From the NCBI GenBank assembly GCA_018825965.1, contig JAHKAA010000051.1, forward strand, positions 28,032 through 92,031: a stretch of DNA of 64,000 bases. Reading direction: 5' to 3'. A program made the position numbers and the translations under genes. This document shows positions 35,339 to 48,257 of the stretch, piece after piece. This DNA is from Gammaproteobacteria bacterium. GTDB taxonomy: Bacteria > Pseudomonadota > Gammaproteobacteria > Enterobacterales > Alteromonadaceae. The notes beneath the pieces were generated by a model. That model did no database searches and was not told the origin of the DNA. It was given only the letters and a program-made list of their open reading frames with translations. Each line of letters starts with the position of its first letter. Position 1 is the stretch's first letter.

Positions 35339-35863
35339 ATGCAAGGTGAACTTCAGCGAAAAATACTCAACAGATGCAAAGTCGTGATGTTTTGTTTGTT
35401 TTGCAGCTCAGCCAGTGCTGCGATGCAGCCGGGTTTTACTGAGTTCCGCACTTTCTCAGATCCAAATGGCCAGTTGTATTTAGAGGCCCCCAAAGATTTT
35501 GTGCTTATAGCCGCAGAAGTAAACGTTCCTTTGATTGTCAGTAAAAAATACGGCTACCTGAAAATTAACCAGACGCCAACAGGCTGGGCGCTTGAACCTC
35601 TCACATATGCACAATGGAAAGCATTGCAACTGACAGAAGGTCACCCTTTTGTGGTTTCAATAAACAATACAGAGCAGCCTGATAAAGTGTCCTTAAATGT
35701 GGTGAATCAACCTTTTTCTGTAGTTGTTATTAGCGGTTTAAATTCTGTGTTCTCCTTCTCTGCCTTTAATTCAGACGGTACAGCTTATAATCCTGCCGAT
35801 CTAACCCGTCAGACCAGTTATAACTACGACAATAAAGGGCGTTTACTCAGTACAACAAAATAG
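35339..35863 (+). CDS. Secreted protein: paralog of the RHS N-terminal domain with a single C-terminal YD repeat
   Basis: Signal peptide (..SSASA-AMQ), 20/67 ungapped identities to RHS residues 35-101, ends TSYNYDNKGRLLSTTK. Confidence 0.75.
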   Translation: MQGELQRKILNRCKVVMFCLFCSSASAAMQPGFTEFRTFSDPNGQLYLEAPKDFVLIAAEVNVPLIVSKKYGYLKINQTPTGWALEPLTYAQWKALQLTEGHPFVVSINNTEQPDKVSLNVVNQPFSVVVISGLNSVFSFSAFNSDGTAYNPADLTRQTSYNYDNKGRLLSTTK

Positions 35864-35938
35864 TCTAAGTAATTTTCACCACAGTTTTTTGTTGTTCAAT
35901 AAAATTTGATACCACAAATAATAAGACGGAGCCAGCAT

Positions 35939-36488
35939 ATGCAAACATCATTCCCGCAAAGCGCTTTGCTTATCGGGATTGCGTGATAAAGCTTCCGTTA
36001 CTTTAGTTCGGGCCATCTGCTCTGCTATTGAACTTTATGGCATACCACGGCTGATACGCACTGACAACGAAGCTGTGTTTACCTCAAGAACTTTTCGTTG
36101 GGCTTTGAAATTCTTAGGAATCAAGCATCAATGCACTGATTTAGGTTGTCCGTGGCACAAAATTGCTTTTCCAATTTTGAACATCGAAGCGCAGCGACGA
36201 TGGCCCGGAGGGTGAGCAATGGCACATTGCGAATAAAATGGTCGTATCGAGAGACTGTTTGGCACCTTCAAACAACAGATCAGAAAAATCATCGTTGAAG
36301 ATGGAATGGCACTTAGCCAACGCTTAGCTGAGTTTCAATTCTGGTATAACGCCATCCGTCCACACCAAAACCTGAAGGGCCAGACACCAGATGAAATCTG
36401 GCATGGCAAAGCAATACCTCGCAGCAAAAACTGGACTTATGTTGAATTCTGGAATGGTGTGCTGCAGGGGTTTTATGCCAGAGAGTAG
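35939..36488 (+). pseudogene. Defective copy of the DDE integrase/transposase at 39209-40090
   Basis: 5' deletion joins ATG to EHHSRKAL; IRTDNEAVF and NGRIERLF retained; interrupted by a 78-bp insertion. Confidence 0.9.
36159..36236 (+). mobile_element. 78-bp multi-hairpin insertion element (MITE-like), copy 1
   Basis: Splits TGG CAC|AAT GGT in the integrase. Shares AA..TTGAAC..GGCCCG.AGGG.GAG..CGA.TA with 39020-39093. Confidence 0.75.
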
Positions 36489-36608
36489 ATTCGACAACGA
36501 GGTGCAAAAAAACAAAAAACACTGTCCGCGCAGGATAGAGGCAGCGGCTACCCGAATAGCCGCGGTTTGCTCAAAAAGAAGACACATTTTTAAAGAGCGC
36601 TAAAAATA

Positions 36609-46900: not shown

Positions 46901-47855
46901 CTGTGACATCACCGTAATAATGTATTTCACCAGATTTGGTTTCTACGGTAAAAGCACGCGGCCCCTGAGTGGCTATCCCATGCTGGCGGATTTTTTCAAA
47001 ACCATCTAACTCGGTATGAAATTCGGTGGCTGTAGCCCAGTAGCTGGCATCAGTCACAGCTTTGTCATTGCTGGCGCCATTTTTTACCAGTCGCTGGCCA
47101 TCCAGACACAGCCTGTCTGAGGCCGCAAAAGCTACATTGCCCTGCACTGTATCTACAGCTAAGTTTTTTGGACAACGGGTAATAGCTGATGCGCCGGACA
47201 AGCTCCAGCCAGCGCCCATATACCCGTCTCCGGCAGCGCTGCTGTAGCTAAATGCTAACTGAGGTTTTACACCGGCAATGCCATCAGGCAACGCCAGAGG
47301 CATGGAATAGTTTGCATTACCTGATTCATCAACCCTGAACTCTCCGCTGCTTAAACCAACAGTTGTGGTAGGGTTGATCAAAGCAAAAGTCGAAAATACC
47401 GGTCTGTCCTGACCTATGCCACCCGTTAATTCCATTCGTTCAAAATAAGAGGATTCTATGCCGGGGTTTCCCTCCAAATCCCTGAGCAATAGCTGGTTGG
47501 CCGTCAGATGATTTAATGCGATAAACAACTCGCTTTTACCATCTCCGTCGAAATCTGCTTTTTGTACAGTTTCAATCTGATCATGCCCGGGAGTCAGGTT
47601 AAGCAACTCCCACTCTGCTTTGGACAAAAGTTGCACCTGCCATTGACCATTGACTTCATACAACCGCAGCAAGCCATTAGGTGAGGGCACAAAAATAGGG
47701 GTGGCTTTTCGTTCTGGCAGTACCACCAGCTTATCCGGCGCTTTTAAATAAATATCTCCGTATTCGTCGGTATACACCTCATAGCCTTTGGCCATGACGA
47801 CAGAGGACATGAATAAAAACACTAAAACCAATAAGCGAAATAATCCAGAACGCAT
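40959..47855 (-). CDS. Giant RHS/YD polymorphic toxin (SpvB-like + FG-GAP/VCBS + TcdB-midN-like + YD repeats + RHS core + C-terminal toxin), Sec signal peptide
   Basis: AAGGAG RBS then MRSGLFRLLVLVFLFMSSVVMA-KG. Contains GEFRVDESGNANY..P.G..G..PQL..YSS..GDG..G.GW, several D.NGDG..D repeats, many YGYDAAGN/YDALGR repeats, GYTGHE..HMGGRTYNPVLGRFMQADP and NPMSMTDPSG (41850-41861). Confidence 0.93.
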   Translation of the reverse strand: MRSGLFRLLVLVFLFMSSVVMAKGYEVYTDEYGDIYLKAPDKLVVLPERKATPIFVPSPNGLLRLYEVNGQWQVQLLSKAEWELLNLTPGHDQIETVQKADFDGDGKSELFIALNHLTANQLLLRDLEGNPGIESSYFERMELTGGIGQDRPVFSTFALINPTTTVGLSSGEFRVDESGNANYSMPLALPDGIAGVKPQLAFSYSSAAGDGYMGAGWSLSGASAITRCPKNLAVDTVQGNVAFAASDRLCLDGQRLVKNGASNDKAVTDASYWATATEFHTELDGFEKIRQHGIATQGPRAFTVETKSGEIHYYGDVTAVSGTDSMNKALAISLKNASGGAETGADAFFDTSLNSNLARMWALKAIRDVKGNYIVFKYHEDQTLGEHYLSEVHYTGRSGGNAPFAKVVLNYVDNTKIAIGWQAQKRVGMTKLLDTVDVFQDGTMYRKYLLNYFNTNVLEEKNYLLSIQECAGSSANQCYAPTTFDWNRPAAVSTTYTTRCDNEPGTPQYCWQEPVTQSYSPFISLSQTKGSSVDRYNQKIIDINGDGFADLVYPRGGAWQVRLGGASGSSAGCGTPAGEPTQCTPAPLISNFTTEQTLTSTGIAKKEYAQTIDFNGDGQRDLLVADSANSNWFIISFLPSVRTERTCEPYPDQHICDTYQVNTVYSVIPVGYKATGLEGGALVADYDGDGLEDIVFVSGNVFQAYRNKGSGTNNVHLGFEHKSTLGSVSAGAGQMGWNMASYTADAKSTSAIDVNGDGRTDLLIKVTEGQCSVPGFLQQECYYEGYQWRVVTSWRLYLSTGTGYVHHQSIENNPNLRAVDLNGDGYTDLMYQSGTTWYYQLSNGNTLLPARSSGLTSAANLLNYVYFLDLNGDGRTDVLLPTASNNWKVMLSRPSKVHEQVLFEQRGTRSFDNTAAIQFADIDADGKLDLLTATNDAGWKIFRNNRAYFKDHSIRKITNGWGVSTIIEYQAIADQNVYVRQDSANNNSSDYFSPRAGMSVVSKVHTEVKPNQFVSVSYQYGGLLIDKKGRGFLGFELLRTTDNQSSVVTETLYHQLWPYTGIPKSTLQTRAGHTLSFSTNTVAQRITTYGGVYPYIASSTEHSYSLNSALTLSSHLATTSSSFAYDGYGNLTSSTVTISDPANAANKLLTETSNTFNSTTTYQRYGRLTASTVRKRLYVNNAVTSDISRQSSFSYNADYLLETEVFAPNLAAAKSTTTYGYDAAGNKTSVKVSAGSGANGAAATDRTSSSTYTANFRYVASSTDAMGKTSSYRYNGVAASSFTPTLITSITAVSPNNQSSTTNFDAFGQSTSSSIKGALSSDIAVTGTVTKSFCSGCETLFPDAYIKVVTSSVTGAEQQQFIDKYGREVGSKTKLPVSGLYSVSRKTYDNQGRPSQVFEPATGAVSNYVSTVTYDALGRAIQTTMANGGVSKVDYSGYTTTHTDALLKTKSSTANYLGQTVSTRDHNGSVLSFSYNAYGDLLTASFAGVTRVSNSYDNYGRKYAMTDVDKGSWSYVTNGFGELISQTNAKGETTHFEYSNAGQMLRRYDASGTVCWSYGGAAASYNINQLIGVKQWAASNTACDSTATPVYAESYSFNSKALVSSKTINTGGASYTTSSTYDSYGRPYELTYPSSGAITGPKIRTEYSFGAAYKTTDYSSGSAGTVYHLTTAVNARGQSTGVSYGDKVVASFTYDDATGWLKGSSVNYAPTGATIQLYNYDFDYVGNVKSRQLSYGVGSSANLTETFGYDNLHRLTSRTVNSALNVTGALAMTESYGYDALGNLTSKPGVGNYSFSYDANGNVTNDSKRSFIYTAFEKPSRIQQNTDFTDFEYGPNRELIKRIDKRGNNITSTLMLDGYEQITLPTGVVEHKYSVGDAIITKRSNGANETYYLHKDQQGSTTAITNASGNTVQQLMYDPWGKQHVVNISLLTYTSPATSKGYTGHEMVNDFEVIHMGGRTYNPVLGRFMQADPIIQSPTDLQSFNRYSYVMNNPMSMTDPSGYSWLSKTWKKWGKMIVAAVVSYYTFGAVSGLLLNSGGMCALSMSVGQAMLAGAASGFVGGAIMTGNLRGATKGALTGAITGGVSQHLSASGTSFKDASYRVAVSAAGGCAAGEVSGGNCSDGARKAALAQAVLVSMEAYSGYKHSLKAAEGDPVVKAYGEGVHDPKVPNVGESIEALEEGANKSLIGRKLSSLSASEVTELLKENIDGRLINKGKLWLENGDITFGFGTEQDFWMRAAAKVPGMNSMAVFHDKWMANISASSSLVLVPTIAPALYGNYMALGTSSYKYYARNIRDE

Positions 47856-47900
47856 CAATACGCACTCCTTTGCAACTACAGGCAAAAATGGGGGCTAGAA

Positions 47901-48257
47901 TCAGTTGGCGGGCATAAGTTCGATACTATCCAGCACGCACTTTGTTTTGGTTGGATCAAACTCAACAATAACCTCTGCATTGGAAGAAAATGCGGTTAAC
48001 AGCAAAGCATGCATACTGTCAAAATGTGCAGCTTTATCCGGGATACGGATAAAGTCTCCTTTCACCAGTTCACAGGCCAAAGCTTTTCTGTCGACATCCT
48101 TTAGTACAGTGATGAAGACGCCTTCTGATGTCACTTTTAGTGACTGTGCAAAACCATTAATTTTGCCGAAACAGCTTAAGTTTTCGCAGCTTGCAAAGAC
48201 TGGGTTTGTAGTGAATGCCACTAAAGTGGTCAAAATCACCGCTGGTAAATGTTTCAT
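47901..48257 (-). CDS. Small secreted protein with an AB5 B-subunit-like motif, first gene of the RHS operon
   Basis: GGAGAGG RBS, signal peptide, four Cys, DSMHALLLTAFSSNAEVIVEF...CVLDSIEL; its stop is 45 bp before the RHS start. Confidence 0.7.
   Translation of the reverse strand: MKHLPAVILTTLVAFTTNPVFASCENLSCFGKINGFAQSLKVTSEGVFITVLKDVDRKALACELVKGDFIRIPDKAAHFDSMHALLLTAFSSNAEVIVEFDPTKTKCVLDSIELMPAN

Follow-up and report, generated by a model that had tools for sequence, protein, structure and literature searches.

Polymorphic toxins of the "TcdB/TcaC" class join a signal peptide, an SpvB domain, an integrin-like propeller and RHS repeats to a variable C-terminal tip (Zhang et al. 2012; excerpts of PMC3482391). 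How such SpvB-RHS proteins leave the producing cell and enter a target without a TcA injector, a type VI secretion system (T6SS) or a type V secretion system (T5SS) has been an open question since 2012. Here we analyse a stretch of 64,000 nucleotides (nt) from contig JAHKAA010000051.1 (the window), which carries a chromosomal polymorphic-toxin island of a Rheinheimera species. Its RHS gene, which encodes a toxin of this class, is unremarkable on its own. Beside it lie two genes for small secreted proteins, H and B, that resemble the B subunits of AB5 toxins in predicted fold and that we call B-like. By profile comparison, H and B are members of one large unannotated secreted superfamily, and this superfamily is genomically coupled to the RHS class, especially to a domain of about 95 residues near the N terminus of its toxins (the N-domain).

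The TcdB/TcaC class resembles the toxin of the window in its signal peptide, SpvB domain, FG-GAP propeller, RHS repeats, variable tip, downstream immunity gene and orphan tip cassettes. The excerpts of PMC3482391 describe neither a small AB5-B-like partner nor an N-domain between signal peptide and SpvB, and the table on this class names only "TcdB" as an associated component. Tc toxins are the other point of comparison: their TcB-TcC cocoon (YenB/YenC, TcdB2-TccC3) shares with the RHS protein the SpvB region, the propeller and TcdB_midN, and likewise has its shell closed by the aspartyl protease motif of the Rhs core, with a hypervariable tip inside. TcC and Rhs cores form a closed shell around a self-cleaved C-terminal toxin, and to our knowledge canonical TcB and TcC have no Sec signal. 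In Tc toxins, TcB and TcC dock on a pentameric TcA injector encoded nearby, without immunity genes, whereas the locus studied here has an RHS signal peptide, the extra N-domain, putative periplasmic immunity genes and no TcA in the 64 kb. No TcA-like open reading frame (ORF) was present among the called genes and Pfam matches of the related loci that we inspected (numbered L001 onwards). Natural TcB-TcC fusions are known (Song et al. 2021, PMC7861908), and the excerpts of PMC10847048 attribute release of the Yersinia entomophaga Tc toxin to lysis that depends on a type X secretion system (T10SS).

We established the layout of the window from ORF listing, domain scans and repeat finding, and called signal peptides by eye from sequence. 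The gene order and every element listed in the original prediction, which had been made from the DNA letters alone, were recovered in this way. Among ORFs of at least 150 amino acids (aa), the window holds no VgrG, PAAR, Hcp or TcA gene, as had been stated, and no type II secretion system (T2SS) gene. The toxin, its direct neighbours and the second B-like gene are the following.

47901-48257, minus strand: H, 118 aa, with a signal peptide; B-like; opens the apparent H-RHS-Imm1 operon
40959-47855, minus strand: RHS toxin, 2298 aa, with Pfam and NCBIfam domains
47511-47789, minus strand: RHS N-domain, about residues 23-115 (about 95 residues; alignment A6)
about 46695-47324, minus strand: SpvB (PF03534) in RHS
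about 45186-46268, minus strand: FG-GAP propeller in RHS, from Pfam
about 44673-45116, minus strand: TcdB_midN in RHS, from Pfam
about 41850-42107, minus strand: Rhs core (TIGR03696), ending ...DPSGY
40962-41849, minus strand: RHS tip, 296 residues, a Gly-zipper and a C-terminal domain without a family match
40325-40966, minus strand: Imm1, 213 aa, a putative lipoprotein with lipobox VMTGC
36746-37078, minus strand: B, 110 aa from MKIIL, secreted and B-like

The RHS protein runs from a signal peptide (read as MRSGLFRLLVLVFLFMSSVVMA, with cleavage before KG) through the N-domain, SpvB (PF03534, E 1.5e-9), an FG-GAP propeller (FG-GAP_3, E 1.3e-28), TcdB_toxin_midN (E 6.6e-30), the RHS shell (RHS_repeat, E 7.7e-24) and the Rhs core (TIGR03696, E 5.3e-18) to the tip. 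As judged from its sequence it is a Sec-exported, TcB-TcC-fusion-type polymorphic toxin of the TcdB/TcaC class; the original prediction had recognized such a fusion, and the class had already been described. The closest solved structures in a sequence search of the PDB are T6SS Rhs proteins and YenB (4igl), all distant. Neither the tip nor the N-domain has a match in Pfam, NCBIfam or the PDB sequences. The gene probably starts at ATG 47855, which follows an AAGGAG Shine-Dalgarno sequence, the TTG at 47885 being the mechanical start of the ORF; H has a GGAG Shine-Dalgarno sequence ahead of its ATG. The preceding gene, for an M28 peptidase, is closed by a strong terminator at 48597-48622. Because this terminator lies upstream of H and none occurs in the 45-nt gap between H and RHS, H-RHS-Imm1 looks like a single operon. 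The RHS stop codon lies within an 8-nt overlap with the Imm1 gene, a position that makes Imm1 the putative cognate immunity protein of the RHS tip.

A secreted superfamily with an AB5-B-type predicted fold

The original prediction had treated H and B as two genes of one kind. BLASTP detects no similarity between them (E 0.19) and hhalign of narrow profiles gives a probability of only 13.9%, but a broader H-family profile (alignment A3) matches the B-family profile (A2) with a probability of 97.4% and an E value of 1.5e-11, so that their homology stands at the level of profiles and not at that of pairwise sequence. Homologues of B number more than 151, are 54-83% identical to it and come from Rheinheimera, Shewanella, Agarivorans, Microbulbifer and Kangiella, among others; H has only seven homologue clusters, at 47-100% identity. 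A full-library profile search with the H family retrieved 69 representative proteins, which are 102-153 aa long apart from two long outliers; among the matches listed, every sequence opens with a hydrophobic leader, and four Cys are invariant across the 65 sequences of A3. A search with the combined alignment retrieved 362 proteins. Among the matches listed none carries a Pfam domain, and their source names are "hypothetical", "uncharacterized", "secreted protein" or absent, with the exception of one unrelated-looking truncated UniRef label (P0085). Across 38 non-redundant loci we counted 152 B-like ORFs with a median length of 113 aa, frequently in tandem arrays of 5-14 genes, and in Agarivorans albus one array of 13 genes, which immediately follows an RHS gene, contains both H-type and B-type members. 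The mature proteins, of about 90 residues, have two Cys in 82 of the 152 ORFs and four in 30, numbers consistent with disulfide bonds. The cleavage site of H itself is ambiguous, either that of a signal peptide (between VFA and SC) or that of a lipobox. The two long outliers, P0139 (2109 aa) and P0158 (725 aa), match the H-family profile in nine and four separate stretches, respectively, and may be concatenated or repeated B-like domains.

An AlphaFold2 model of B, built on 146 sequences, consists of strands, a central helix and more strands (predicted local distance difference test score (pLDDT) 88, predicted template-modelling score (pTM) 0.76). When it was compared with the PDB by Foldseek, the top 50 matches were almost exclusively B subunits of AB5 toxins. 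They include the B subunit of the heat-labile enterotoxin (LT) LT-IIb (1tii_D, E 3e-3, probability 1.00); the template-modelling (TM) score per target was 0.77 for the Shiga toxin (Stx) subunit Stx1 B (1czw_A, root-mean-square deviation 2.7 Å) and 0.80 for Stx2 B (3mxg_A), with a range of 0.75-0.80 for the best matches, and the probability was 1.00 for these two Stx subunits as well. Pertussis S2/S3 and other pertussis chains, the B subunits of cholera toxin (CT) and LT, ArtB and PltC were also matched. The weaker model of H places Stx2 B, LT-II B and pertussis S2/S3 on top, the same families as for B. The models thus agree with the oligonucleotide/oligosaccharide-binding (OB) fold that had been anticipated for the small proteins. 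Because sequence-level searches give no AB5 family, we confine the resemblance to the predicted fold and do not claim membership of the AB5 B family.

Like AB5 B subunits, H and B are small, Sec-exported and Cys-bearing, with a predicted OB fold and central helix, and the gene adjoins that of a toxic partner. Typhoid-like toxins are known to have alternative or orphan paralogues of their B subunits (excerpts of PMC11610972, PMC12629460 and PMC9120245). H and B differ from AB5 B subunits in showing no similarity at the level of sequence, in their free-living aquatic hosts and in the partner: the neighbour of H encodes a 250-kDa RHS cocoon, whereas the A subunit of AB5 toxins is an ADP-ribosyltransferase, an RNA N-glycosidase or a subtilase with an A2 helix. 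The AB5 literature that we searched makes no mention of arrays with as many as 14 paralogues. No account of an RHS-B-like pairing came up in literature searches on Rhs, SpvB or Tc toxins in conjunction with AB5, B subunits or OB folds, and the term "Rhs" is absent from a 2023 AB5 review. What appears to be new here is a widely conserved partner family, AB5-B-like by structure prediction, of a known polymorphic-toxin class.

Coupling of B-like genes to the RHS class

At all seven retrieved loci, the H homologue (47-86% identity) is followed by an SpvB/FG-GAP/midN/RHS gene whose start is no more than about 70 nt away. The H-RHS gap stays at 30-80 nt down to 47% identity while the chromosomal context differs, the outer neighbours being an M28 peptidase gene in the window, a xylose isomerase gene in L003 and L004, and an integrase and an SRAP gene in L001. 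A scan for the B family with one genome per species gave 17 loci, from Rheinheimera, Arsukibacterium, Shewanella, Microbulbifer, Kangiella, Aliikangiella, Cellvibrionaceae, Exilibacterium, Roseateles and a metagenome-assembled genome labelled Marinirhabdus. RHS homology lies within 10 kb at 10 of the 17. Of the remaining seven, four run into a contig end beside the gene, which leaves 10 of 13 informative loci, and L021, L024 and L025 have none. Since the surroundings of RHS genes (10 kb) make up, by rough estimate, a few per cent of a genome, co-location in about 75% of cases is a large enrichment. B-like homologues are thus strongly enriched next to this RHS class, in keeping with the link drawn in the original prediction, for which a lack of such enrichment had been named as a refutation. 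Further B-like loci with RHS were seen in Agarivorans, in a Rheinheimera metagenome contig and in Porticoccus, where an orphan RHS core and tip lie inside the array, whereas Pleionea and one metagenome locus were negative.

The coupling also appears in the opposite direction. An alignment of the N-domain alone was too variable to seed a metagenome scan, so we used the 450-aa N-terminal region of RHS, which gave 33 SpvB-RHS loci. Among those with an N-domain, 8 of 12 have a match to the B-like hidden Markov model (HMM) immediately upstream, against B-like genes in 2 of the 21 N-domain-negative loci (Fisher p=0.0012). L033, a ninth N-domain-positive locus, has a divergent upstream member that we recognized by eye, outside the HMM count. 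In six of the N-domain-negative loci (L041-L046) the signal peptide runs directly into SpvB. Over all the loci, the N-domain HMM matches in L001-L007, L016, L017, L019, L022 and L030-L038. B-like subtypes track N-domain subtypes, the H type occurring with window-like N-domains and an "ETVDRN...KKVRF" type with those of L030, L032, L035 and L037. Identities of B-like proteins and N-domains covary weakly (Spearman 0.34, p 0.04), and we used only the subtype match because distant local-alignment identities are unreliable. As a separate observation, L039 and L040 represent another SpvB-RHS subclass, with an N-terminal module WVPIxNGDLTTxIPVP and a Cys-containing domain; L040 has an array of 14 B-like genes upstream of RHS and L039 none within 3.4 kb.

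Such figures could in principle arise by hitch-hiking, if B-like genes were independent small secreted lectins or adhesins that gather in recombination-prone RHS islands. The locus in the window is visibly scrambled by insertion sequence (IS) elements and deletions, a solitary B-family gene sits in a prophage-like region (L025), and B-like genes stand beside unrelated genes in L021, L064 and L065, all of which this explanation would accommodate. It does not account for an H-RHS pair that keeps its close spacing at such divergence and in such varied contexts, or for an upstream gene that is far commoner before N-domain-positive than before N-domain-negative RHS genes, and the B-like HMM finds no further match in the rest of the 64-kb window. 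We consider hitch-hiking very improbable. The L025 gene deserves mention in its own right: it lies within the stretch 8700-12700 of a Microbulbifer variabilis locus, is 59% identical to B and has SSB and phage-like ORFs nearby, a setting that recalls phage-borne AB5 toxins.

The coupling is to the constant part of the toxin and not to its tip. In complete RHS genes with an upstream B-like gene all tips differ, and each has its own unrelated downstream gene; the H and B orthologues are 47-86% identical while the tips change completely. The genes directly after tips encode Imm1, Imm2 (which follows tip2, an orphan tip of the window described below), an ankyrin protein in L002, where the RHS tip is GHSLGG lipase-like, a 204-aa protein in L009 and a 112-aa membrane protein in L011. 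Imm1 and Imm2 have no match to a Pfam or NCBIfam family or to the PDB; Imm2, whose gene overlaps the tip2 stop codon by 4 nt, is the putative immunity protein for tip2.

These observations bear on the main rival explanation, in which the B-like arrays are a periplasmic "poly-immunity" against the periplasm-acting toxins of competitors, as SUKH/SuFu arrays are in the cytoplasm. Arrays of 5-14 divergent paralogues in RHS loci have the look of such a system, B-like proteins carry signal peptides as Imm1 and Imm2 do, some arrays lie downstream of the toxin gene (L011, L017), and B-like genes occur in some loci without RHS. Yet H-type genes stand upstream of the toxin, first in the operon, every tip already has an unrelated gene of its own directly downstream, the orthologues are retained through complete changes of tip, and their presence correlates with the RHS N-domain rather than with the tip. 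Within what we searched, moreover, no immunity family is known to have an AB5-B fold, although this does not amount to proof. Because the tips differ and have their own downstream genes while B-like subtypes go with N-domain subtypes, the B-like proteins do not behave as tip immunity proteins and fit better as partners of the constant N-terminal part of RHS. The arrays still resemble poly-immunity loci, for which reason we retain poly-immunity as the main rival, while judging it quite unlikely.

A Gly-rich hydrophobic module, about 125 residues long and marked by the motifs GGKFGHGF and GxKFxNGA, opens many otherwise unrelated tips. The module, which has no Pfam match, occurs at 38300-38720 of the window (the N-terminal part of tip2) and in the RHS tips of L002, L032, L033 and L035, and could be a shared pre-toxin or membrane-insertion segment.

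A possible role for B-like proteins in toxin delivery

We favour, with a probability of about 0.58, the explanation that B-like proteins are dedicated extracytoplasmic accessory subunits of the RHS toxin. Sec would export H, RHS and Imm1. By analogy with TcC and Rhs cores, the RHS shell would close around its self-cleaved tip, and Imm1, to judge from its position, would guard the periplasm. H, or alternatively B and the array paralogues, would assemble in the periplasm and bind the RHS N-domain, a step suggested by linkage and fold. As in AB5 toxins, the B-like accessory might then provide binding to a surface glycan or receptor, and it might hold the signal for export across the outer membrane, a function that falls to the B pentamer in cholera toxin and LT. 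Alternative specificities could come from further paralogues, such as B in the window and the arrays of 5-14 genes at other loci, and the conserved Gly-rich hydrophobic segment with which many tips begin is a candidate for membrane insertion. Tip2 with Imm2, two IS481-like copies and a further ORF, A, would be debris of earlier recombination downstream of the core operon. Oligomerization of the B-like proteins, their binding to the N-domain, a role in receptor binding or export and the passage of the tip across the target membrane are thus proposed from linkage, predicted fold and analogy.

A narrower role would confine the B-like proteins to the producing cell, as periplasmic chaperones or export adaptors for the 250-kDa RHS protein with no function at the target. 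The B-like gene appears to be co-transcribed upstream of RHS, in the position of EagR/DUF1795 genes of T6SS Rhs effectors; Eag chaperones are, like H, encoded by a small gene directly upstream of the Rhs gene and specific for the N-terminal region of Rhs. The correlation with the N-domain would suit such a role, and in CT and LT the T2SS export signal lies in the B pentamer. Eag proteins, however, reside in the cytoplasm, where their targets are transmembrane helices of PAAR-Rhs effectors, and their fold is unlike that of AB5 B subunits, whereas H and B have signal peptides and an AB5-B-like predicted fold. A chaperone role leaves both the arrays of up to 14 highly divergent paralogues and the B-like genes of RHS-less loci unaccounted for, and the predicted fold is that of lectin-like binding subunits. 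We regard this restriction as unlikely and return to the explanation by accessory subunits.

In a more specific form of that explanation, close to what the original prediction had proposed, AB5-style rings of B-like proteins would clamp the N-domain of an exported BC (TcB-TcC) cocoon, giving a new type of holotoxin, (BC)B5, in which the lectin-like ring replaces TcA for target recognition and perhaps serves outer-membrane export. In that case the arrays would hold receptor-binding subunits that can be exchanged or mixed so as to direct one toxin chassis to new targets. We put this forward tentatively, as a possibility that is on balance doubtful.

Several observations weigh against a dedicated subunit of the toxin. 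The link between RHS and B-like genes is statistical and not absolute: in L021, L025, L064 and L065 there is no RHS in the 10 kb around the B-like genes, and the shorter flanks of L024 contain none either. Conversely, the L017 toxin has the N-domain, a downstream array only and no upstream B-like gene, L040 places its 14 genes before an N-domain-negative RHS, and in array loci no single conserved type is nearest to RHS. The Fisher test given above treats loci as independent and ignores phylogeny. On the side of structure, the AlphaFold2 model of H, from seven sequences, is of low confidence (pLDDT 55), neither H nor B has a Pfam or NCBIfam match at E 0.01 or better, and a superfamily profile run against PDB sequences returned no AB5 chain even at E 10. 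We know of no membrane-translocation activity of an OB-fold ring, and the release and entry of the tip are therefore left unexplained. Finally, the negative result for TcA holds for the 64-kb window, and a TcA elsewhere in the genome is possible.

A partner family with the receptor-binding fold of AB5 toxins nevertheless makes the delivery question for SpvB-RHS toxins directly testable. If the explanation by accessory subunits is true, the AB5-B fold reaches free-living aquatic Gammaproteobacteria and at least one betaproteobacterium, far beyond pathogens, has been expanded into arrays of up to 14 paralogues and offers a modular way to retarget a large toxin chassis. Should the delivery model prove wrong, a superfamily with hundreds of members would still deserve a family definition.

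Remnants and mobile elements beside the operon

The other elements of the island are the following.

40197-40321 (113-nt unit 40209-40321): repeat R3, just 3′ of Imm1, within the 223-nt duplicate 40109-40331
39209-40090, plus strand: IS481-like rve transposase, with rve, rve_3 and transpos_IS481 matches; adjoins the RHS remnant
38770-39183, minus strand: RHS 3′-shell remnant, DNA identity 94% and 84% to 42155-42481
37818-38753, minus strand: tip2, a Gly-rich pre-toxin segment and an HExxH (HEIGH) metalloprotease-like domain
37273-37821, minus strand: Imm2, 182 aa, with a visible signal peptide
37192-37304: repeat R2, 3′ of Imm2, covering the last 31 nt of Imm2
36608-36720: repeat R1, 3′ of B, inside the 223-nt duplicate 36508-36730
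35937-36489, plus strand: degenerate copy of the same IS, 3′ part, 86-88% identical to 39617-40091, frame broken
35339-35863, plus strand, convergent: A, 174 aa, with a signal peptide, an RHS-type N-domain and one YD motif

The original prediction saw in A a YD-tipped accessory of the toxin. Residues 36-112 of A align with residues 35-111 of RHS (26% identity, E 2e-10), and only the N-domain is common to both. A is 44% identical to a 174-aa ORF of R. pacifica (L019) whose tail is a piece of Rhs core, and again only the N-domain is in common; Shewanella nanhaiensis (L022) has a 74-aa N-domain stub, and the L019 and L022 stubs each directly precede a different, SpvB-less RHS gene. The A cluster holds nine sequences at at least 90% identity. 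In four other contexts (Rheinheimera sp. A13L, numbered L067, and the three metagenome contigs L068-L070), neither an RHS gene nor a B-like gene is found closer to A than 10 kb, and an rve or likely IS ORF adjoins it in three of the four. As only the N-domain is shared, stubs exist elsewhere and A persists without RHS or B-like genes, we ruled out a conserved accessory; A most likely represents the 5′ end of an old RHS gene, left stranded where the island ends. The genes that follow the stubs are of a second RHS type, about 1400-1550 aa long, without SpvB or propeller and with a hydrophobic N terminus of its own, found inside B-like arrays (L019:3080-8300; L022:1108-5695). The short ORF that directly precedes them consists of the SpvB-RHS N-domain alone (174 and 74 aa), which may reflect recurrent displacement of one RHS type by another.

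Tip2 had been taken for an alternative metalloprotease tip. Its Pfam matches to M10 and reprolysin families are all below cut-off, it is out of frame with the RHS remnant, and the whole Rhs core including the cleavage motif has been deleted, so tip2 appears from its sequence to be a decayed, pseudogene-like orphan. Its pre-toxin segment resembles the RHS tip of Rheinheimera L002. The remnant is frameshifted and interrupted by a 71-nt insertion at about 39022-39091. Orphan Rhs tip/immunity modules of E. coli and Salmonella likewise combine a 3′ RHS fragment, an alternative tip and an immunity gene with a direct repeat of shell DNA. Unlike them, the module in the window has lost the Rhs core, is frameshifted and lies interrupted beside an IS, and simple repeat recombination would not yield a working fusion. 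Around the insertion (39009-39104, minus strand), Rfam gives a sub-threshold match to Aggregatibacter sRNA 22 (30.7 bits against a gathering threshold of 39.8, E 0.019) that is probably due to chance.

The 113-nt repeat occurs in exactly three copies in the window, against 0 expected by chance. Its secondary structure is not significant (z -0.58), Rfam gives no match and none of 62 other loci has a copy, on which grounds we ruled out attC sites, repetitive extragenic palindromic (REP) elements and small RNAs (sRNAs). An integron-type cassette array does not fit either, since the repeat shows no significant structure and the sole recombinase is a DDE transposase, without a tyrosine integrase. 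The repeats look like duplicated 3′ flanks of successive modules rather than recombination sites. The DDE transposase, whose IS481-like element showed no clear terminal inverted repeats, looks like that of an ordinary IS, and nothing ties it to cassette exchange. The DDE-linked cassette array of the original prediction is thus not borne out.

Swappable tip cassettes, which had been proposed alongside it, find a partial echo in sequencing data. The sequencing runs that match the window are all metagenomic DNA (groundwater metagenomes). Strains of about 97% identity in metagenomes from seawater and runoff give coverage over B, the IS, Imm1 and RHS, whereas the part with Imm2 and tip2, 37.4-38.7 kb, is left uncovered, and a minority metagenome contig joins 37303 to 40197. 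The orphan tip2/Imm2 module is therefore variably present among close strains, while the transposase has no visible part in this and the orphan itself is decayed. In one seawater run (X5), a contig joins 39123 in the remnant to 43266, a non-homologous RHS position, skipping 4142 nt, with only 29 nt on its shorter side. Depth over 41805-42738 in the same run is about four times that of the rest of the RHS gene (45-50 versus about 11), probably because several copies or orphan fragments of this recombination-prone segment exist in the community.

The rest of the window is ordinary chromosome, with genes for efflux pumps, two-component systems, peptidases and chemoreceptors. Downstream of the island lie a HipA-like kinase gene (56411-57730) and an Rce1/CAAX-protease-like gene (58105-59055). 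In strain A13L (L067), Rce1-like genes adjoin a C39-peptidase ABC exporter, which suggests a bacteriocin-type cluster nearby.

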